Shown piece by piece: positions 847 through 13,234 of a DNA stretch of 13,234 bases. A program made the translations under genes and the position numbers. The first letter of the stretch is position 1. Every line of letters starts with the position of its first letter. The DNA comes from a virus. Its lineage: Duplodnaviria > Heunggongvirae > Uroviricota > Caudoviricetes. Under the pieces are notes generated by a model that made no database searches, was not told the DNA's origin, and worked only from the letters and a program-made list of their open reading frames with translations. The DNA lies in IMG/VR virus record IMGVR_UViG_2850778813_000008; one strand, 5' to 3'.

Positions 847-1241
847 TGAGGTAGCCTGAGTTTAACGGACACTCCTTCCTGAAATAGAATGGCATCAGAA
901 GGAGCTAATAATGAGCAGAAAAAACCAACGTTACTCTAAAGAGTTCAAAGCCGAAGCTGTCAGAACGGTTCTTGAAAATCAACTTTCGATCAGTGAAGGC
1001 GCTTCCCGATTATCCCTTCCTGAAGGCACTTTAGGACAATGGGTTACCGCCGCCAGAAAAGGGCTCGGTACTCCTGGTTCCCGCACGGTGGCTGAACTGG
1101 AATCTGAAATTCTGCAACTGCGTAAGGCGTTAAATGAAGCTCGCCTTGAGCGAGATATATTAAAAAAAGCAACAGCGTATTTTGCACAGGAGTCGCTGAA
1201 AAATACGCGTTAATCGAACAATGGCGACAACAATTTCCCAT
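847..1241 (+). mobile_element. IS600 (IS3 family), 5' fragment only (left IR plus orfA); interrupted by IS629
   Basis: Starts TGAGGTAGCCTGAGTTTAACGGACAC, identical to the left end of the complete copy at 6035; sequence follows the complete copy until ~1241, then IS629 left IR begins. Junction ambiguous over 4 nt (TGAA shared). Confidence 0.8.
911..1213 (+). CDS. IS600 OrfA (IS3-family transposase N-terminal HTH protein)
   Basis: 100-aa ORF MSRKNQRYSKEFKAEAVRTVLENQ... recalled as IS600 orfA; differs from copy at 6099-6401 at two residues (R/C, A/V). Confidence 0.85.
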   Translation: MSRKNQRYSKEFKAEAVRTVLENQLSISEGASRLSLPEGTLGQWVTAARKGLGTPGSRTVAELESEILQLRKALNEARLERDILKKATAYFAQESLKNTR

Positions 1242-1295
1242 TGAACCGCCCCGGGAATCCTGGAGACTAAACTCCCTGAGAAAGAGGTAAACAGG

Positions 1296-1622
1296 ATGAC
1301 TAAAAATACTCGTTTTTCCCCCGAAGTCCGTCAGAGGGCGATTCGTATGGTTCTGGAAAGTCAGGGCGAATATGACTCACAGTGGGCGGCAATTTGTTCC
1401 ATTGCCCCAAAGATTGGCTGTACACCGGAGACTCTGCGTGTCTGGGTACGCCAGCATGAGCGGGATACCGGAGGCGGTGATGGCGGGCTCACCACCGCTG
1501 AACGTCAGCGTCTGAAAGAGCTGGAACGTGAAAATCGTGAACTGCGCCGCAGTAACGATATCCTTCGCCAGGCTTCCGCTTATTTTGCGAAGGCGAAGTT
1601 CGACCGCCTCTGGAAAAAGTGA
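1296..1622 (+). CDS. IS629 OrfA
   Basis: 108-aa [36 protein letters not shown]..., HTH-type IS3-family orfA; ends W-K-K-stop over an A-rich run just before orfB. Confidence 0.8.
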
Positions 1623-2509
1623 TGCCACTGCTGGATAAGCTGCGTAAGCTGTACGGGGTCGGACCGGTATGCAGTGAACTACATATTGCCCCGTCAACGT
1701 ATTACCACTGTCAGCAACAGCGACATCATCCTGATAAACGCAGTGCCCGTGCGCAGCGCGATGACTGGCTGAAGAAAGAGATACTGCGTGTATACGATGG
1801 GAATCATCAGGTATACGGTGTGCGTAAAGTCTGGCGTCAGTTGTTACGGGAAGGTATCAGAGTGGCCAGATGCACTGTGGCACGTCTCATGGCGGTTATG
1901 GGACTTGCCGGTGTTCTCCGGGGTAAAAAGGTCCGTACGACCATCAGCCGGAAAGCCGTTGCCGCAGGCGACCGCGTAAACCGTCAGTTCGTGGCAGAAC
2001 GACCTGACCAGCTGTGGGTGGCTGATTTTACTTACGTCAGCACATGGCAGGGCTTCGTCTATGTGGCGTTCATCATTGATGTGTTTGCCGGATACATCGT
2101 GGGGTGGCGGGTCTCATCGTCCATGGAAACGACATTCGTGCTGGATGCTCTGGAGCAGGCGTTATGGGCCCGTCGACCGTCCGGCACGGTCCATCACAGT
2201 GATAAAGGTTCTCAGTATGTATCGCTGGCCTACACACAGCGGCTTAAGGAAGCCGGATTACTGGCATCAACAGGAAGTACAGGCGACTCGTATGACAACG
2301 CGATGGCGGAGAGCATCAATGGTCTTTACAAAGCGGAGGTAATACACCGTAAGAGCTGGAAAAACCGTGCAGAAGTGGAACTGGCCACACTCACGTGGGT
2401 GGACTGGTATAATAATCGACGATTGCTGGAAAGGCTGGGCCATACTCCTCCGGCAGAAGCAGAAAAAGCTTATTATGCTTCCATCGGAAACGATGATCTG
2501 GCAGCCTGA
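1619..2509 (+). CDS. IS629 OrfB (DDE transposase catalytic domain; normally expressed as OrfAB by -1 frameshift)
   Basis: 296-aa ORF in -1 frame relative to orfA, overlapping its stop; contains DDE-type region (...WVADFTYV..., ...HHSDKGSQY..., ...YDNAMAES...). Confidence 0.85.
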
Positions 2510-2551
2510 GTTCACAGATAAAACACTCTCCAGGAAACCCGGGGCGGTTCA

Positions 2552-3449
<898 letters not shown>

Positions 3450-3596
3450 TGGAGCACCTGTGTTGTTCTGAGGTGAGCATATCACCTCTGTTCAGGTGGC
3501 CAAATTCAGTGTGCCACTTCAGCCCGAAAGGGCGGGGAGCAGTCACACATCTGTTTCCGATAGCCCCGTTCTAATGCTACACTCTTTGATATTTTT

Positions 3597-4283
3597 ATGA
3601 CCCCAATAAACATATTTATGACAGTTGCTGATTTCAAACGGCCCAAATTGGAGCTCCCAAACGGGGCAAACAAACTACTACTGCACTCTTGCTGTGCTCC
3701 ATGTTCCGGTGAGGTGATGGAGGCGCTTCAGGCCTCGGGAATCGACTACACCATCTTTTTCTACAACCCGAACATTCATCCTCAGAAAGAGTATTTAATT
3801 CGTAAGGATGAGAATATTCGCTTTGCTGAACAACACGGCGTGCCGTTTATTGATGCTGATTACGACACAGACAACTGGTTTGAACGAGCCAAAGGAATGG
3901 AATGGGAGCCCGAACGAGGGATCCGTTGCACCATGTGTTTTGACATGCGTTTTGAGCGGACAGCGCTGTACGCCGCTGAAAATGGTTTCAGTGTGATCAG
4001 CAGTTCACTGGGCATTTCACGCTGGAAAAATATGCAGCAGGTTAACGACTGTGGGCGGCGAGCCGTCGCGCATTATCCGGGCATGGTGTACTGGGATTAT
4101 AACTGGCGCAAGCAGGGAGGCTCGTCCCGTATGATTGAAATCAGCAAGCGCGAAAAATTCTATCAGCAGGAATATTGTGGCTGTGTGTATTCTCTGCGCG
4201 ATACCAATCTACACCGCAAATCTCAGGGACGCCCTCTTATCAAAATTGGTCAACTCCACTACGGTAAAGAAGAGAAGGAGTGA
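3597..4283 (+). CDS. QueH-like protein (DUF208 / epoxyqueuosine reductase family), tentative
   Basis: 228-aa ORF with [11 protein letters not shown] motif near N-terminus plus downstream CTMCF and EYCGCVY cysteine motifs, as recalled for the QueH/DUF208 family. Start uncertain (ATG 3597 or 3618); no strong SD at either. Confidence 0.5.
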
Positions 4284-4304
4284 TTTTATGGGGCACCTTT
4301 CTGA

Positions 4305-4334
4305 TTGATTTCATATTGGCGAGGTAAGTAGAAT
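4305..4334 (+). promoter_or_regulatory. Candidate sigma70 promoter for the hok transcript (TTGATT-N18-TAGAAT)
   Basis: TTGATT at 4305-4310 and TAGAAT at 4329-4334; would place transcript start ~4340, just at the 5' fold-back element and ~170 nt upstream of hok. Confidence 0.35.
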
Positions 4335-4338
4335 GACT

Positions 4339-4352
4339 GCGGGTGCTTGAGG
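4339..4352 (+). promoter_or_regulatory. hok mRNA 5' element complementary to the 3' end (fold-back inhibition-type pairing partner)
   Basis: GCGGGTGCTTGAGG (4339-4352) is near-perfectly complementary to CCTCAACGCACCCGC at 4723-4737 (one extra G), ~385 nt apart, flanking the hok ORF. Confidence 0.45.
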
Positions 4353-4510
4353 CTATCTGCTTCAGGCATGAACACTAAAAGGCAGATAGAGAAAAGCCCC
4401 AGTTAACATTACGCGTCCGGCAAGACGCTTAACATTAATCTGAGGCCAATTTCATGCTTTGCACATGTAGGTTAGCCTCTTACATGCCGAAAGGCAAGGA
4501 GAAGCAGGCT

Positions 4511-4666
4511 ATGAAGCAGCAAAAGGCGATGTTAATCGCCCTGATCGTCATCTGTTTAACCGTCATAGTGACGGCACTGGTAACGAGGAAAGACCTCTGT
4601 GAGGTACGAATCCGAACCGGCCAGACGGAGGTCGCTGTCTTCGTAGACTACGAATCCAGGAAGTAA
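4511..4666 (+). CDS. hok: Hok/Gef-family type I toxin (HokD/RelF-like)
   Basis: MKQQKAMLIALIVICLTVIVTALVTRKDLCEVRIRTGQTEVAVFVDYESRK: N-terminal TM helix and conserved LCE..R.G..EVA.F..YE tail; from memory matches E. coli HokD/RelF except the last ~7 residues. AGGAGA SD-like sequence 9 nt upstream. An in-frame upstream ATG at 4454 gives the 70-codon track ORF (mok-like position). Confidence 0.8.
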   Translation: MKQQKAMLIALIVICLTVIVTALVTRKDLCEVRIRTGQTEVAVFVDYESRK

Positions 4667-4722
4667 GAGTGACCGGGCGGGGAGCTGATCCCATCCCCGC
4701 CCACCTCTGATGTGTCAGGCAT

Positions 4723-4737
4723 CCTCAACGCACCCGC
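4723..4737 (+). promoter_or_regulatory. hok mRNA 3' element complementary to 5' element at 4339-4352
   Basis: CCTCAACGCACCCGC pairs with GCGGGTGCTTGAGG; position just upstream of the terminator matches hok-family mRNA architecture. Confidence 0.45.
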
Positions 4738-4743
4738 ACTTAA

Positions 4744-4786
4744 CCCGCCCATCGCTGTGATCTCTCAGCGTTTCGGCGGGTTTTTT
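4744..4786 (+). terminator. Rho-independent terminator-like structure downstream of hok
   Basis: CCCGCC (4744-4749) pairs GGCGGG (4775-4780) with inner CGCTG/CAGCG helix, followed by TTTTTT (4781-4786). Confidence 0.45.
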
Positions 4787-4806
4787 GTTGTTTATTTCCG
4801 GTGAAT

Positions 4807-4834
4807 TTGATTCGCGCACCTTCGCAGATAGAAT
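4807..4834 (+). promoter_or_regulatory. Candidate sigma70 promoter (TTGATT-N16-TAGAAT) upstream of the 4916 operon
   Basis: TTGATT 4807-4812, TAGAAT 4829-4834; same hexamer pair as the candidate at 4305. Confidence 0.3.
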
Positions 4835-4915
4835 CGACTCACTTAAGTAGCGCGCAGGGAGAAGAGGGATGGACCCCGAACAGGGGAGAGCTATTTATCT
4901 GGAAGGATTCTGAAG

Positions 4916-5203
4916 ATGAAAATCGAAGAATTGCGTGAAATTTTTAGTGAAAATGGCCTCTATGCTGTGCGCGTTGAGAATGGAGCGATTGTCAGCCATT
5001 GCCGCATTAGATGTTTGCAATCTCAACAAAGGAAGAGCGGTGCTGTGTTATTTTATTTTTGTAATGGACTTCTGACGGACGGTTTTATTTTGCGTGAGGA
5101 CGAATTTGTCACATCATTACGGGTTTTGAAAGAGATTGGTTTTAAGGCTGGTTTTCTGCTTTTGCTGAAGAATAAACTCATCTACAATCTTGAGCAGGAT
5201 TGA
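4916..5203 (+). CDS. Hypothetical small prophage protein (95 aa)
   Basis: ORF with GAAGA upstream, overlapping the next ORF by 14 nt (translational coupling); occupies the position of rem in Qin-type prophages (positional inference only). Confidence 0.4.
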   Translation: MKIEELREIFSENGLYAVRVENGAIVSHCRIRCLQSQQRKSGAVLFYFCNGLLTDGFILREDEFVTSLRVLKEIGFKAGFLLLLKNKLIYNLEQD

Positions 5204-5840
5204 ACTCCTGCTGTGTAACACCGTGCCACCGGAGAAAGCCGATGGCCATATACAACTGATCAAACAAACCTCTTCCGGATTACTTCTCCCGGCGACGCCG
5301 GAGAGTTGCGATTTTCTGCATCAAATCAAAACAGGTGAGTGGATACACGCAGACTTTAAGCGTGTGCGTAACTACGCATTCCACAAGCGTTTTTTCAAAC
5401 TCCTGCAACTGGGATTCGATTACTGGACTCCGATCGGTGGGGCGATTACGCCTCGCGAACGAGAACTGGTATCAGGCTTCGTTGAGTACCTGTGCGAATC
5501 AGTAGGCCGGGAACATACGCCAGCTCTGAGCGAAGCCGCAGAGCAATATCTGAATACAGTTGCGACACGCAGAACCCGAGATACAGCATTGCTAAAGTCG
5601 TTTGAGGCTTTCCGCGAGTGGGTAACCATTCAGGCCGGATTTTACACCGAGCATATTTATCCGGACGGTAGCCGTGGGCGCAGGGCGAAATCCATCTCGT
5701 TTGCGAATATGGACGAAACCGAGTTTCAGCAGGTTTATAAATCTGTGCTGAATGTACTGTTGAACTGGATCCTGTTCCGTAAATTTTCCTCTCCGGAACA
5801 AGTCGAAAATGTGGCCGCGCAGCTACTGGAGTTTGCGTAA
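5190..5840 (+). CDS. Prophage nin-region protein, possibly DUF1367 family (tentative)
   Basis: 216-aa ORF, stop overlaps next start (TAATG at 5838-5842); family assignment from weak recollection and gene order, not verified. Confidence 0.45.
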   Translation: MSRIELLLCNTVPPEKADGHIQLIKQTSSGLLLPATPESCDFLHQIKTGEWIHADFKRVRNYAFHKRFFKLLQLGFDYWTPIGGAITPRERELVSGFVEYLCESVGREHTPALSEAAEQYLNTVATRRTRDTALLKSFEAFREWVTIQAGFYTEHIYPDGSRGRRAKSISFANMDETEFQQVYKSVLNVLLNWILFRKFSSPEQVENVAAQLLEFA

Positions 5841-6034
5841 TGGTGGATTTACGTAAAGCGGCGCGGGGGCAGATGTGCACCGTCAGAATTCCTGGCTACT
5901 GCAATCACGATCCGGAAACGTCTGTGCTGGCGCATTACCGACTGGCGGGTAAAAACAAGCGATTACACCAAAGAAGAATTACGCCTGATGCATGCAGAAG
6001 GTGTTTTTCGCACGCAAGAAATCTGGAGAAAGGA
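5840..6034 (+). pseudogene. ybcO-like (DUF1364) gene remnant: internal ~100-bp deletion/frameshift, then interrupted near its 3' end by IS600
   Basis: N-terminus MVDLRKAARGQMCTVRIPGYCNHDPETSVLAHYRLAG resembles recalled YbcO N-terminus; after RLAG homology moves to another frame (...EGVFRTQEIWRKEGYL-stop resembles the YbcO C-terminal tail) and that frame's TGA overlaps the Q-like ATG once IS600 is removed. Stop of track ORF 5840..6037 is the TGA of the IS600 left IR. Confidence 0.45.
6032..6034. repeat. Target-site duplication GGA (left) of IS600 copy 2
   Basis: GGA immediately left of IS600 IRL; identical GGA at 7299-7301 right of IRR. Confidence 0.6.
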
Positions 6035-6098
6035 TGAGGTAGCCTGAGTTTAACGGACACTCCTTCCTGAAATAGAATGGCATCAGAAGGAGCTAATA

Positions 6099-6401
6099 AT
6101 GAGCAGAAAAAACCAACGTTACTCTAAAGAGTTCAAAGCCGAAGCTGTCAGAACGGTTCTTGAAAATCAACTTTCGATCAGTGAAGGCGCTTCCCGATTA
6201 TCCCTTCCTGAAGGCACTTTAGGACAATGGGTTACCGCCGCCAGAAAAGGGCTCGGTACTCCTGGTTCCCGCACGGTGGCTGAACTGGAATCTGAAATTC
6301 TGCAACTGCGTAAGGCGTTAAATGAAGCTTGCCTTGAGCGAGATATATTAAAAAAAGCAACCGTGTATTTTGCACAGGAGTCGCTGAAAAATACGCGTTA
6401 A
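6099..6401 (+). CDS. IS600 OrfA
   Basis: 100-aa ORF, near-identical to 911-1213; A-rich slippery run (ATTAAAAAAAG) near 6350-6357. Confidence 0.85.
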   Translation: MSRKNQRYSKEFKAEAVRTVLENQLSISEGASRLSLPEGTLGQWVTAARKGLGTPGSRTVAELESEILQLRKALNEACLERDILKKATVYFAQESLKNTR

Positions 6402-6436
6402 TCGAACAATGGCGACAACAATTTCCCATTGAAGCG

Positions 6437-7255
6437 ATGTGTCAGGTATTTGGTGTATCCAGGAGCGGTTATTACAACTGGGTACAGCATGAACCCTCAG
6501 ACAGAAAACAAAGTGATGAGCGGCTAAAACTGGAGATTAAGGTGGCACATATCCGCACTCGCGAAACATATGGAACCCGGCGGCTCCAGACGGAGCTGGC
6601 AGAGAATGGCATCATCGTTGGTCGTGACCGACTGGCACGTCTTCGTAAGGAGCTAAGGCTACGCTGTAAGCAGAAACGCAAGTTCAGAGCGACTACGAAC
6701 CCGAACCACAATCTGCCAGTTGCGCCAAATCTGCTGAACCAGACGTTCGCTCCTACAGCACCAAATCAGGTCTGGGTGGCGGACCTGACGTATGTTGCCA
6801 CACAGGAGGGATGGTTGTACCTCGCTGGCATCAAAGATGTTTATACGTGCGAAATTGTCGGCTACGCCATGGGAGAGCGCATGACAAAAGAGCTGACAGG
6901 TAAAGCCCTGTTTATGGCGCTCAGGAGCCAGCGCCCACCTGCCGGGCTAATCCACCACTCTGATCGAGGTTCACAGTACTGCGCATACGATTACCGGGTC
7001 ATACAGGAGCAGTCTGGTCTGAAAACATCAATGTCGCGTAAAGGTCACTGTTACGACAACGCTCCGATGGAAAGCTTCTGGGGAACGCTGAAAAATGAGA
7101 GCCTGAGCCACTATCGTTTTAATAACCGGAATGAAGCCATCTCAGTAATACGGGAATACATTGAGATTTTCTACAATCGTCAGCGTCGTCACTCTCGTCT
7201 GGGGAATATCTCCCCGGCAGCCTTCAGGGAAAAATATCATCAGATGGCTGCTTAA
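6437..7255 (+). CDS. IS600 OrfB (DDE transposase domain)
   Basis: 272-aa ORF with ...WVADLTYV..., ...HHSDRGSQY..., ...YDNAPMESF... motifs. Confidence 0.85.
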   Translation: MCQVFGVSRSGYYNWVQHEPSDRKQSDERLKLEIKVAHIRTRETYGTRRLQTELAENGIIVGRDRLARLRKELRLRCKQKRKFRATTNPNHNLPVAPNLLNQTFAPTAPNQVWVADLTYVATQEGWLYLAGIKDVYTCEIVGYAMGERMTKELTGKALFMALRSQRPPAGLIHHSDRGSQYCAYDYRVIQEQSGLKTSMSRKGHCYDNAPMESFWGTLKNESLSHYRFNNRNEAISVIREYIEIFYNRQRRHSRLGNISPAAFREKYHQMAA

Positions 7256-7298
7256 AAAAAGAACAAATGGTAGTGTCCGCTATTGCCAGTACACCTCA

Positions 7299-7301
7299 GG
7301 A
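7299..7301. repeat. Target-site duplication GGA (right) of IS600 copy 2
   Basis: See 6032-6034. Confidence 0.6.
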
Positions 7302-7310
7302 AGGTTATTT

Positions 7311-7865
7311 ATGATTTACCCAACAAATACAGGCAAAAGCGGGGAACACCTTCGTCTCACCACGCTGGAAAGTGTCTGGATTCAGGGAAAACTGCGCATG
7401 TGGGGGCGCTGGTCGTATATTGGCGGCGGTAAGACGGGGAATATGTTCAACCAGTTGTTGGCCTCTAAAAAGCTGACAAAAACGGCAATTAACGAGGCGC
7501 TCCGGAGGATGAAAAAAGCAGGTCTGAACAAGTCTGAACTTGAGGCTTTTTTGCGGGATATGATTAACGGTAAGCAAAAGAGCTGGCTGGCGCATTGTAC
7601 TGATGCAGAGGCGTTATGTATTGATCGGGTCATAAGTGAGGTGCTGGCAGAGCATCCAGGATTGATTAGCGTCCTTCGGCAACGGTATGAGGGGCGGGGG
7701 ATGACCAAACGCAAAATGGCTGAACTGCTGAATGATGCACACCCGAAATGGAGTTTAAGAACCTGTGAAAGACGCATTGAGCATTGGCTAAAGGTGGCAG
7801 AATTTATTTTGTACAAACCAATGGTTATGGCTTTTGGTATAGAGAAAAAAGTTATTGCTTTTTGA
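7311..7865 (+). CDS. Putative late-gene antitermination protein Q-like (184 aa)
   Basis: ORF from ATG 7311 containing LESVW...WGRW, resembling the LE.WG.W motif recalled for Q-family proteins; followed by terminator and tRNA cluster as in lambdoid Q-PR'-tR' regions. Track ORF 7161..7865 starts inside IS600 and is rejected as the native start. Confidence 0.5.
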   Translation: MIYPTNTGKSGEHLRLTTLESVWIQGKLRMWGRWSYIGGGKTGNMFNQLLASKKLTKTAINEALRRMKKAGLNKSELEAFLRDMINGKQKSWLAHCTDAEALCIDRVISEVLAEHPGLISVLRQRYEGRGMTKRKMAELLNDAHPKWSLRTCERRIEHWLKVAEFILYKPMVMAFGIEKKVIAF

Positions 7866-7942
7866 CGTAAAAACTGCTTCAATTCTTGTACGCTTCGCAA
7901 AGCTGTACCGCGAGGCGAATAGCAGACATGGACATTTGAAAG

Positions 7943-7966
7943 AGCCCGCTTTATGCGGGTTTTTTT
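7943..7966 (+). terminator. Rho-independent terminator (tR'-like) downstream of Q-like gene
   Basis: AGCCCGC-TTTAT-GCGGGT hairpin followed by T7 run (7960-7966). Confidence 0.6.
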
Positions 7967-8054
7967 ATACCTGAAAAACGGCACAGGACGTTAAACGTGC
8001 TGGTGGTCAGATGAGTTTGCAGATGTGATGACATATGGTTATTATTCTGCCTCC

Positions 8055-8131
8055 GGCCCTTTAGCTCAGTTGGTCAGAGCGAGCGACTCATAATCGCCAG
8101 GTCGCTGGTTCAAGTCCAGCAAGGGCCACCA
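8055..8131 (+). tRNA. tRNA with CAU anticodon, Ile2 (ileX/ileZ-like) by similarity; Met not excluded
   Basis: Hand-folded cloverleaf: acceptor GGCCCTT/AAGGGCC, anticodon loop CTCATAA (CAT at 8089-8091), T-loop TTCAAGT, 3' CCA encoded; resembles recalled E. coli ileX. Confidence 0.75.
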
Positions 8132-8132
8132 A

Positions 8133-8209
8133 CCACCACTAGCTCATCCGGATAGAGCATCAACCTTCTAAGTTGACGGTGCGAGGTTCGAGTCCTCGGT
8201 GGTGGGCCA
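8133..8209 (+). tRNA. tRNA-Arg (UCU)
   Basis: Acceptor CCACCAC/GTGGTGG, anticodon loop CTTCTAA (TCT at 8167-8169), T-loop TTCGAGT, CCA encoded; unusual C1-G72. Confidence 0.7.
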
Positions 8210-8211
8210 GC

Positions 8212-8287
<76 letters not shown>

Positions 8288-8290
8288 TAT

Positions 8291-8351
<61 letters not shown>

Positions 8352-8423
8352 TGAAGTGGCACACTGAATTTGGCCACCTGAACAGAGGTGATATGCTCAC
8401 CTCAGAACAACACAGGTGCTCCA

Positions 8424-9592
<1,169 letters not shown>

Positions 9593-9600
9593 CCACTTCA

Positions 9601-10843
9601 GGGCGTATGCGAACGCTTTCGCCAGTTCTGAGTGTCGCGACAGGGTTTTCATCTTTTCACGCAGCCAGCTTTCCAGGGATTTCAGCAGCGGTTTCGTTTT
9701 CAACTGACGTTCGGCAAGGCGCTGCTCCGCCGTCATTCCCCTTATCTCTGCCTCGATGGCGTACAGTTCGCCGATCCGTTTCAGCGCTTCCTCCGTCAGG
9801 GCTGACGGGGTGCGAACGTGCACATCGTGGATTTTACGGCGGGCGTGAGCCCAACAGGCGGCTTCCGTTATCCGGCCATCCCGGTACAGCTCGTTGAACC
9901 CGGCGTATGCATCCGCCTGCAGTACACCACTGAACCCCGCAAGATGGGTCTGCGGATGGATGCCTTTTCTGTCCGGGCTGTAAGCGAACCACACCGCCGG
10001 CGCCAGCGTTGACCCGGCGTTACGGTCGTCACGAACGTAGGTCCATAACCGCCCGGTCTTCGTTTTCTTATTGCCTGGCAACAGCACCGGGACAGGCGTG
10101 TCATCAGCATGGAGCTTACCGTCAGTCAGCACATAGTCCTGAAGCGCTTCTTCCAGCGGTGACAGTAGCCGGCAGCATGCATCCACCCAGCCCGACAGCA
10201 GTGAACGACTCAGCTCCACGCCCTGGCGGCCGTACATTTCAGACTGGCGGTACAGCGGGGTGTGCTCTGCATACTTTGAGATCAGCACGCGGGCCAGCAG
10301 CCCCGGTCCTGCGATACCCCGCTCGATGGGCCGTGAAGGCGTGGGGGCCTGCACGATGGCATCGCACTGAGTACAGGCATGCTTTTCACGTACAGTCCGG
10401 ATAACCCGGAAGACGCTGCGCATCAACTCCAGCTGTTCGGCGGCATCCTCACCCAGATAGCTCAGTGAGCCTCCACATTCCGGGCAGCATGACGCTGCCG
10501 GCAGCAGCCGTTTTTCATCGCGGGGGAGTGATTCGGGGAACGGTTTGCGGGTGCGGGTTTGACGCAGCGGGCGCTGCACGGCCGGGTCGTCAACCCGACC
10601 GGTAAGGGTATCACTTTCTTTCTGAAGTGCCTTCAGGTCAGCTTCCATCTGTGCGATACGACGGGAGACTTTTTCGGAGCGGCTGCCGAAGTTCATCCGG
10701 CGCAGCTTATCCAGCTGTGCCTGCAGATGGTCTATTTCGCGTTCACGCTCGTTCAGCTTTTCCAGCAGGGCACGGTTCAGCGCCTCCTGTTCGGCAAGGA
10801 GACGTTTCAGTGCATTGATATCGTCAGGAAGTGAGCTGCTCAT
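9601..10843 (-). pseudogene. IS66-family transposase TnpC, C-terminally truncated by IS911
   Basis: 414 native codons with CxxC...CxxC zinc-finger-like region (CCPECG...CTQCD) and DDE-type core; last native residues ...[11 protein letters not shown], then the frame runs into IS911 (track ORF 9527..10843). Confidence 0.75.
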
Positions 10844-10891
10844 ACCGGGTATATTACCAGGCTCATTCAGCGTCGACCAGGATAAAGAGGC

Positions 10892-11239
10892 TTACAACAT
10901 AGTCAGGGACGTAAGCAGTCTTTTAGGCTGCCGCCAGTCGATACCTTCAAGGAGCATCGCCAGCTGTGCCGGTGTGAGGAACACTTTGCCATCCCGGGCT
11001 GACGGCCAGGCGAAGCGGCCGCGCTCCAGCCGTTTGGTCAGCAGACACAGTCCATCGCCGGTAGACCAGAGGAGCTTTACCTGACTGCCATTACGCCCAC
11101 GGAAGATAAAAACGTGACCTGACATCGGATCGTCTTTCAGCGTCGTCTGCACCTTTGCCGCCAGGCCGTTGAAGCCATTTCTCATATCGGTGATACCGGC
11201 AACCAGCCAAATTTTGGTCCCGGAAGGTAACGGGATCAT
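10892..11239 (-). CDS. IS66-family TnpB (Orf2)
   Basis: 115-aa [29 protein letters not shown]... typical of IS66 orf2; start overlaps tnpA stop. Confidence 0.75.
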   Translation of the reverse strand: MIPLPSGTKIWLVAGITDMRNGFNGLAAKVQTTLKDDPMSGHVFIFRGRNGSQVKLLWSTGDGLCLLTKRLERGRFAWPSARDGKVFLTPAQLAMLLEGIDWRQPKRLLTSLTML

Positions 11240-11637
11240 CGCTTCAGTTCCTGTATCAGCAGAGTCAGGAGCTTTTCGCTGACATTGCCATTGAAGCGGA
11301 GCGTCCCGTGCCGGAACGTTACCTCACAGCTGATACTGAGGGTTTCCGGATCCTCTGCGAGCGATTCTGGCTGTTCGGCAGCTGCATCGAGAGTCACAGG
11401 AAGTAGCTGGGGGCTCTCTGAAGAAGGTAATAGCAGCTTTCCCTCGCGCCATTGTTGTCGCCATTTGAACAACAGATTGGCGTTAATGCCATTTTCAAGA
11501 GCAAGTTTTGAGATGGATATCCCGGGTTCACAGGAGGCAGCAACGAGCTGCTGTTTAAATTCGGGAGGATAATTAGGGCAGCCTTTTCGCCTGCCGGGAT
11601 TCACATTTTTCTGCATATCTGACACTTTGGTTCCCAC
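11236..11637 (-). CDS. IS66-family TnpA (Orf1)
   Basis: 133-aa ORF immediately upstream of and overlapping tnpB, HTH-like N-terminus. Confidence 0.7.
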
Positions 11638-11708
11638 TACTTATTTGGTGGACACCACTTTGTCTAATTCGTCAGATTCTGACCAGACGGTTCAGGCTGT
11701 ACGCTTAC

Positions 11709-12091
11709 AGTTGATGCAGTCGTTGTACGACTGGATACAGTTGCAGAGGAAAACGCTGTCGAAACATGCGGAGATGGCGAAGGCGTTCGACTATATCCTG
11801 AATCACTGGAATGCGCTGAACGAGTTCTGTCGTGACGGCTGGGTGGAAATAGACAACAACATCGGTGAAAACGCGTTACGATCGGTGGCGGTTGGAAGAA
11901 AAAATTATCTTTTTTTCGGCTCAGACAAGGGAGGAGAAAGTGCGGCGATCATCTACAGTCTGCTGGTCACCTGCAAACAGAACGAAGTGGAGCCGGAGGA
12001 CTGGTTGCGCGAAGTGATCGAGAAGCTCAATGACTGGCCGTCGAACCAAGTGCATGAACTGCTGCCCTGGAACTTCTCGTCTGTAAAATAA
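11709..12091 (+). pseudogene. IS66-family TnpC C-terminal fragment
   Basis: See element 11709-12123; track ORF 11627..12091 includes non-homologous upstream codons. Confidence 0.55.
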
Positions 12092-12123
12092 TCCTTACGC
12101 TACGTACTTCTCGGGGCGCTTAC
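11709..12123 (+). mobile_element. Second, diverged IS66-family remnant: 3' end of a tnpC plus right terminal repeat
   Basis: Plus-strand ORF tail ...[58 protein letters not shown]...ELLPWN resembles an IS66 TnpC C-terminus and is diverged from the neighbouring element; ends ...CTCGGGGCGCTTAC (reverse complement GTAAGCGCCCCGAG) at 12123. Left boundary approximate. Confidence 0.55.
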
Positions 12124-12304
12124 GATTTATCGCCGTCAGCGGGAGCTGAAGGAAGAGCTGAATAGTCTGAAGGATTTGAATTCGGTTAGGAATTTTATCG
12201 TGGAATAACAGAAGCTGCGGCACGTCGTATGCAGGAACGTGCCGCGGTTGGCTGGTAAACTTTCGATAGTGCGAGTATTGAATGATTTCTAGGCGTTATC
12301 GATT

Positions 12305-13234
12305 TGAACCGCCCCGGGTTTCCTGGAGAGTGTTTTATCTGTGAACTCAGGCTGCCAGATCATCGTTTCCGATGGAAGCATAATAAGCTTTTTCTGCTTC
12401 TGCCGGAGGAGTATGGCCCAGCCTTTCCAGCAATCGTCGATTGTTATACCAGTCCACCCACGTGAGTGTGGCCAGTTCCACTTCTGCACGGTTTTTCCAG
12501 CTCTTACGGTGTATTACCTCCGCTTTGTAAAGACCATTGATGCTCTCCGCCATCGCGTTGTCATACGAGTCGCCTGTACTTCCTGTTGATGCCAGTAATC
12601 CGGCTTCCTTAAGCCGCTGTGTGTAGGCCAGCGATACATACTGAGAACCTTTATCACTGTGATGGACCGTGCCGGACGGTCGACGGGCCCATAACGCCTG
12701 CTCCAGAGCATCCAGCACGAATGTCGTTTCCATGGACGATGAGACCCGCCACCCCACGATGTATCCGGCAAACACATCAATGATGAACGCCACATAGACG
12801 AAGCCCTGCCATGTGCTGACGTAAGTAAAATCAGCCACCCACAGCTGGTCAGGTCGTTCTGCCACGAACTGACGGTTTACGCGGTCGCCTGCGGCAACGG
12901 CTTTCCGGCTGATGGTCGTACGGACCTTTTTACCCCGGAGAACACCGGCAAGTCCCATAACCGCCATGAGACGTGCCACAGTGCATCTGGCCACTCTGAT
13001 GCCTTCCCGTAACAACTGACGCCAGACTTTACGCACACCGTATACCTTGTGATTTTCATCGTATACGCGCTGTATCTCTTTCTTCAGCCAGTCATCGCGC
13101 TGCGCACGGGCACTGCGTTTATCCGGATGATGTCGCTGTTGCTGACAGTGGTAATACGTTGACGGGGCAATATGCAGTTCGCTGCATAGCGGTCCGACCC
13201 CGTACTGCTCACGCAGCTTATCCAGCAGTGGCAT
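12305..13234 (-). mobile_element. IS629-like element, inverted, running off the window end
   Basis: Right end TGAACCGCCCCGGGTTTCCTGGAGAGTG... at 12305; orfB on minus strand to 13234. Protein differs from copy 1 at several positions (REQ vs RKL, PLC vs PVC, IQRVYDENHK vs [10 protein letters not shown]). Confidence 0.85.
12347..13234 (-). CDS. IS629 OrfB (DDE transposase domain), copy 2
   Basis: 295-aa ORF, ATG at the last three bases of the window (minus strand); orfA lies beyond the window. Confidence 0.8.
   Translation of the reverse strand: MPLLDKLREQYGVGPLCSELHIAPSTYYHCQQQRHHPDKRSARAQRDDWLKKEIQRVYDENHKVYGVRKVWRQLLREGIRVARCTVARLMAVMGLAGVLRGKKVRTTISRKAVAAGDRVNRQFVAERPDQLWVADFTYVSTWQGFVYVAFIIDVFAGYIVGWRVSSSMETTFVLDALEQALWARRPSGTVHHSDKGSQYVSLAYTQRLKEAGLLASTGSTGDSYDNAMAESINGLYKAEVIHRKSWKNRAEVELATLTWVDWYNNRRLLERLGHTPPAEAEKAYYASIGNDDLAA

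Follow-up and report, generated by a model that had tools for sequence, protein, structure and literature searches.

Epoxyqueuosine (oQ) is converted to queuosine (Q) on tRNA by two kinds of reductase. QueG carries out the reaction oQ-tRNA to Q-tRNA, as set out in PMC5372724 and PMC4646009; it is cobalamin-dependent, and the last Q step needs a cobamide in E. coli (so stated in PMC4646009, with reference to Frey et al. 1988). Statements in PMC5372724 restrict Q to tRNAs with GUN anticodons (Tyr, His, Asn and Asp), and the same paper, together with PMC9508795, describes the full Q pathway in E. coli and Shigella. QueH, a cobalamin-independent iron-sulfur reductase, makes the same conversion on nucleotide 34 of the Tyr, His, Asn and Asp tRNAs. 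QueG, by contrast, is unrelated to it in sequence and fold and needs B12. As queG is present in every E. coli genome, queH is in this species a non-orthologous duplicate of queG and not its replacement. Both enzymes coexist in S. aureus and in S. pyogenes/S. suis, where they have been read as cofactor-supply-dependent alternatives (PMC13443448, PMC12632869).

On the phage side, the closest parallel to the gene described here is offered by the moron and nin-region genes of lambdoid phages, which occupy a variable slot between the replication and Q modules, have their own short upstream block and differ in their neighbours. The relBE-hokD arrangement of the K-12 Qin prophage is an example of such nin-region accessory genes. 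The queH gene in the window (the whole stretch of 13,234 nucleotides that was analysed) resembles these genes in all three respects, but its product is a housekeeping tRNA-modification enzyme and not a toxin, defence or virulence factor, and its own promoter is putative. Judging from sequence comparison and structural modelling, we consider it highly probable that this gene encodes a functional QueH, captured by a phage from an Enterobacterales chromosome and carried as accessory cargo, which would act as a redundant, B12-independent second reductase.

The window holds an intact open reading frame of 228 codons on the + strand (3597-4283). Several comparisons place the start of the gene further downstream: in E. 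coli A10 (L019) the reading frame is closed by a stop codon after the first ATG and before the one equivalent to 3618, and in strain AR_0085 (L022) a 1-nt insertion falls within the region equivalent to 3597-3617. For E. coli 042 and FDAARGOS_944, PGAP places the queH start at the position matching 3618, where the chromosomal QueH orthologues of Erwinia, Providencia and Photorhabdus begin as well, and this start is kept in all compared prophage copies and chromosomal orthologues. The queH product is therefore most likely 221 aa long, read from the ATG at 3618 (3618-4283, + strand, 221 codons plus stop; also supported by the Pfam match and dN/dS values given below), and the 228-aa maximal ORF was dropped as the product. 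Amino-acid changes among the queH copies cluster in the first seven codons of the maximal ORF, and this variable in-frame 5' extension (3597-3617, +) is probably untranslated. Direct reading of the sequence found no Shine-Dalgarno motif ahead of either candidate ATG.

The protein matches the Pfam family PF02677 QueH (formerly DUF208) with 220.6 bits (cut-off 23.5, E 1.9e-65) over profile positions 1-174 of 175, a similarity that chance could not produce. It also matches the sequence of T. maritima QueH (7lc5) with an E value of 5e-22, residues 27-203 being aligned to residues 4-178 at ~31% identity. The family is large, with 4754 clusters retrieved at E <= 0.001, and conservation was assessed by aligning 86 sequences, each representing a cluster at 50% identity. 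No NCBIfam model matched the protein at E <= 0.01, though its PGAP name is QueH; PGAP naming must use another rule, so this blank is not evidence against QueH membership.

Three cysteine motifs are conserved in the family (residues are given in the 228-aa numbering). The HSCCAPCS motif (3684-3707, +), with C32, C33 and C36, aligns with H7-V-C9-C10-A-P-D13 of T. maritima QueH. Further downstream lie a CxxC motif (RCTMC; 3927-3938, +) with C111 and C114, and a CGC motif (YCGC; 4176-4184, +) with C194 and C196, which is kept in T. maritima QueH and most representatives. Among the 86 representatives, cysteine occupies the columns of C32, C33 and C36 in 71, 72 and 70 sequences, those of C111 and C114 in 84 and 83 (T. 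maritima has both as well), and those of C194 and C196 in 60 and 67. Six ligand cysteines are thus conserved, and the seventh position, Asp13 in T. maritima, is a cysteine (C36) in the window protein. As this column holds cysteine in 70 of the ~75 representatives having a residue there, CCAPC is the family norm and T. maritima the exception. The T. maritima mutants C9S and D13N have been deposited in the PDB (9d86, 9dco), which points to a functional importance of the leading Cys and of the Asp in the CCAPD motif. C152, another downstream cysteine, was considered as a conserved ligand and rejected, since most relatives have Ala in its place and E. coli A10 has Ser.

The predicted structure, with the adenine-nucleotide-alpha-hydrolase-like Rossmann core of the QueH fold, is in agreement with the sequence matches. 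An AlphaFold2 model built from 26 sequences (pLDDT 80.5, pTM 0.81) has as its five best PDB matches the five QueH entries, with probability 1.00, TM scores on the target of 0.78-0.80 and rmsd values of 3.2-4.1; the matches that follow are distant adenine-nucleotide-alpha-hydrolase folds, such as TtuA. The residues of the CC(AP)C/D, CxxC and CxC motifs presumably bind a [4Fe-4S] cluster and an adjacent iron. T. maritima QueH (7lc5, 7lc7, 9deu; COG1636) and the window protein thus share the full-length domain, the fold, the CC, CxxC and CxC cysteines and conserved Asn/Arg positions. They differ at Asp13 (CCAPC in the window protein) and in one further trait: the window QueH and its gammaproteobacterial orthologues have a basic tail of ~25 residues, whereas the T. 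maritima enzyme has none. An earlier note on this DNA had described a 228-aa ORF with HSCCAPCS and downstream Cys motifs, all of which can be read directly in the sequence, and had assigned it by these motifs to the QueH family. That assignment was right, as the strong profile match to Pfam DUF208/QueH, the conserved arrangement of the cysteine ligands on alignment and the fit of the predicted fold to the QueH crystal structures all agree. The window ORF is a genuine, intact QueH.

The identity of the gene is already known in the sense that publications cover the QueH family with its reaction and structure and that RefSeq names the exact 221-aa protein 'epoxyqueuosine reductase QueH'; our literature search brought up no article dealing with QueH carried by prophages of E. 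coli or Shigella. The protein matches PHROGs family phrog_3217 at 459.7 bits, which is listed as 'unknown function' and whose profile starts at residue 34, after CCAPC. From this late-starting profile it would seem that the start has been called too far downstream in many phage annotations, which also miss the QueH assignment, and carrying the QueH name over to phage databases would be a small practical gain.

The gene is cargo in the nin region of a decayed Rac/Qin-like lambdoid prophage that has been broken up by IS elements. Prophage markers in the window include hok/sok, rem, DUF1367 and YbcO, a DUF1133 Q-like antiterminator, part of an integrase gene and tRNAs. Alignment with the intact prophage of E. 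coli FDAARGOS_944 is confined to 3522-5949 and 7298-8351, which represent the native phage DNA. The 3' part of the integrase gene (1-846, -; Pfam Phage_integrase) is cut by an IS at 847: it is collinear with the S. boydii Sb227 integrase, which is full length (411 aa), only to 846, and the prophage remnant therefore cannot excise. In the surviving phage segment queH is followed by a hokD/sok type I toxin-antitoxin locus (4341-4666, +; Rfam sok 116 bits, Pfam HOK_GEF, PGAP hokD in relatives), a rem-like gene (4916-5203, +; phrog_340, with identical copies at other loci matching PF27490 Rem), a DUF1367/NinB-like gene (maximal ORF 5190-5840, +; Pfam DUF1367 313 bits, phrog_319 NinB/Orf) and a 5' fragment of a YbcO/DUF1364 gene (5840-5949, +). 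The latter keeps its first ~37 codons (Pfam YbcO matches residues 3-39 only), homology to the intact prophage ends at 5949, and the rest has been lost beside the IS at 6035-7298; the ~85 nt in between (5950-6034) had no match among the sequences compared.

Beyond this IS lie the DUF1133 Q-like antiterminator gene (7311-7865, +, 184 aa; Pfam DUF1133 361 bits, phrog_753, with coordinates obtained by alignment with locus L017) and a phage tRNA cluster. The maximal DUF1133 ORF (7161-7865, 234 aa from TTG) runs 50 codons into the upstream IS, and the native gene is 7311-7865. The cluster comprises three complete tRNAs (8055-8287, +), with anticodon CAU (Ile2-type), Arg-UCU and Thr-UGU, identified by ARAGORN, Rfam and PGAP names (the CAU tRNA being named tRNA-Ile), and a tRNA-Gly(UCC) (8291-8351, +) that has lost its 3' end to the IS at 8352. 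This last tRNA is intact in relatives, which carry an Ile-Arg-Thr-Gly set; in the window it is cut ~14 nt short of its 3' end, gives a partial Rfam match (8300-8354, model positions 10-63) and is missed by ARAGORN. IS elements have interrupted the integrase, YbcO and tRNA-Gly genes, no lysis or structural genes are left, and the prophage in the window is dead. The exact QueH protein is also found in S. boydii Sb227, in S. sonnei Ss046 and in numerous draft genomes of Shigella, and the window and the Sb227 locus share segments that are 99-100% identical and differently arranged; the DNA thus probably comes from a Shigella chromosome.

Outside the window, the same queH slot is found in seven annotated prophage contexts and in the isolated temperate phage HannyBb, 3' of replication/DUF977 genes and 5' of variable cargo (hokD, a KwaB-like Kiwa protein, or an NgoMIV-type restriction-modification pair). 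The gene lies between conserved modules, and its presence or absence is polymorphic among related phages. Its DNA was detected in 995 of 5426 complete E. coli genomes (18%), almost always at full length and annotated as QueH. The cobalamin-dependent queG is present in all 5426, and queH is therefore an accessory gene, for a predicted redundant second reductase. Roughly one in five complete E. coli genomes, along with several Shigella lineages, would thus carry a phage-delivered, predicted B12-independent back-up for the last Q step. In IMG/VR at least 191 viral contigs encode a QueH relative. Among 50,697 GenBank phage records, HannyBb is the only convincing isolated phage with queH: 78 of the 79 phage records matching the region match the hok part only, and HannyBb is the only isolated coliphage among 25 'phage' records with protein-level matches. 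The other 24 are short unannotated metagenome fragments or very large records resembling bacterial contigs, and were set aside.

The slot adjoining queH is a defence hotspot whose cargo differs between prophages. Just 3' of queH, one E. coli prophage carries a KwaB-like Kiwa protein and a partner ORF (L020, 6896-8535), and another a cytosine methyltransferase with an NgoMIV-family endonuclease (L021, 6872-8882).

The nearest relatives outside phages point to the source of the gene. Chromosomal, non-phage QueH proteins of Enterobacter (88% identity), Erwinia (86%), Providencia (83%) and Photorhabdus (80%) are encoded in neighbourhoods devoid of phage genes, in Erwinia between purL and a two-component system and in Providencia near tmcA. 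These near-orthologues have the same length, start position and motifs as the window copy; they differ in lying among housekeeping genes, whereas the window copy lies in a lambdoid nin region and shows presence/absence polymorphism. With orthologues of 80-88% identity at chromosomal loci, the phage appears to have captured a housekeeping gene: a lambdoid phage would have taken queH from an Enterobacterales chromosome, and the gene now opens the nin region, preceded by the replication genes and followed by hokD. Among the prophage copies, pairwise dS reaches 0.48 with dN not exceeding 0.018, and dN/dS ranges from 0.016 to 0.041; such strong purifying selection indicates a working protein. The rem and NinB-like genes, which have no obvious host benefit, also survive in the window, so an intact queH at this locus does not by itself argue for selection in Shigella.

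A native block of ~96 nt (3522-3617, +) travels with queH: it is conserved in eight prophage copies, and sequence further 5' differs among them. It contains a candidate promoter, TTCCGA (3555-3560) separated by a 17-nt spacer from the extended -10-like TGcTACACT (3575-3583), which may be the extended -10 promoter of queH. A scan for consensus promoters and terminators returned nothing usable upstream of queH and did not report this candidate, and when 3400-8400 was scanned with Rfam, sok and the tRNAs were the sole matches, with no preQ1 or other riboswitch upstream of the gene. The predicted fold of the upstream RNA is unremarkable (z = -1.7).

What the gene does for its carriers can be weighed against these observations. 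E. coli and Shigella are not known to synthesize B12 de novo; as QueG needs B12, a queH prophage should free the last step from scavenged B12. In E. coli and Shigella, QueH would then be a redundant second reductase beside QueG, making the last Q step independent of external cobalamin. Our observations show that the protein belongs to the QueH family, keeps its ligands and fold and has been under purifying selection, and that the gene is prophage-borne, variably present, accompanied by queG and matched by chromosomal orthologues elsewhere; from them we infer enzymatic activity in vivo, expression from the gene's own promoter in lysogens and a benefit under B12 limitation. Any host benefit of queH is conjecture, and we know of no phenotype that separates oQ from Q. 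The stronger proposal that prophage queH is a lysogenic-conversion gene, which frees E. coli or Shigella from scavenged cobalamin for finishing Q, is possible but rather doubtful. If it is true, mature Q-tRNA would be kept in B12-poor niches (aerobic sites, the inflamed gut, the host-cell cytosol). Q synthesis (tgt/vacC) has been linked to Shigella virulence (Durand et al. 1994, as cited in PMC10570037), and this link could explain intact queH in otherwise dismantled Shigella prophages. Should queH shift the oQ/Q balance when cobalamin is scarce, it would offer a clean example of a prophage rewiring the tRNA modification state of its host.

The same survival could also reflect nothing but lack of time, the window queH being a silent relic in an IS-dismantled remnant, with an ORF that is merely not yet mutated. 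The truncated integrase, YbcO and tRNA-Gly genes, the at least four IS copies in the window, an IS 96 nt upstream of the gene, the blank promoter scan and a queG that makes queH dispensable all fit this account, but we regard it as unlikely, given that several lineages of Shigella and an intact prophage of E. coli share the QueH protein at 100% identity, and that the upstream block is retained. The very low family-wide dN/dS also speaks against it, though that value measures history and not the present state of the locus. It is likewise conceivable that queH serves the phage, being transcribed from the pR operon after induction and completing Q on host tRNAs, so that the decoding of NAU/NAC codons would be tuned for late genes. 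In all prophages examined and in HannyBb, the gene forms part of the replication-nin-Q unit and shares its orientation, and strong purifying selection fits selection on the phage as well as on the host. Yet tRNA pools turn over slowly compared with a lytic cycle, the conserved private upstream block suggests independent expression, and the dead prophage remnants of S. boydii and S. sonnei, which are incapable of lytic growth, still hold an intact queH of identical sequence; a benefit to the phage itself thus seems quite improbable to us. Recruitment to another job, be it 7-deazaguanine in DNA or an anticodon-loop change that evades or triggers anticodon nucleases or defence systems, is brought to mind by the defence-type cargo directly 3' of the gene (KwaB-like Kiwa, the NgoMIV-type pair, hok/sok). 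But a protein with full-length identity of 80-88% to chromosomal housekeeping QueH and with all catalytic residues unchanged hardly looks repurposed, and no other deazaguanine or Dpd genes occur near the prophage queH loci examined. PADLOC gave no match either, and identity as a known defence protein was rejected for that reason; we give this possibility next to no credence. The reading we prefer is still that of a captured, functional reductase carried as accessory cargo.

The earlier note had further raised the possibility of a phage-borne tRNA-modification function connected with the rare-codon tRNA cluster in the same prophage block. Its more general part holds, since the gene for this predicted tRNA-modification enzyme is indeed carried in prophages and in phage HannyBb; the functional tie to the cluster does not, because the tRNAs of the cluster are not queuosine substrates and the co-occurrence is inconsistent. 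None of the anticodons in the window (CAU, UCU, UGU) is of the GUN type, nor is that of any of the 134 tRNAs found in 80 QueH-bearing viral or prophage loci. Thirty-six of these 80 loci, some of them on short contigs, are without any tRNA. In three E. coli prophages (L020-L022) queH is accompanied by another type of Q module, and the 6 kb around it contain no annotated tRNA; HannyBb has queH and no tRNA. Since the tRNAs are not GUN and do not consistently accompany queH, the two adjoin only as separate cargo slots of the nin-Q region.

IS DNA (847-3521, 6035-7298 and 8352-13234) makes up more than half of the window and belongs to at least four IS families, nested and repeated. Next to the queH upstream region lies a truncated IS3-family element (2552-3521, -), which we take to be IS911-like; homology to intact prophages begins immediately after it, at 3522. 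This element separates queH from the phage replication genes and the early-right operon, its edge lying 96 nt 5' of the start of the 221-codon gene, and is itself truncated at 2551 by another IS. An inverted copy is present at 8352-9602 (+), with the IS terminal repeat starting at 8352. The two inverted copies enclose all the phage DNA that remains, with queH at one end and the tRNAs at the other, in a layout reminiscent of a composite transposon, which may be a coincidence in an IS-rich Shigella genome. Other repeated elements in the window include a 100-aa orfA that occurs twice in near-identical form (911-1213 and 6099-6401), inverted IS copies at 1242-2551 and 12305-13234, and IS66-family genes at ~9527-12091.
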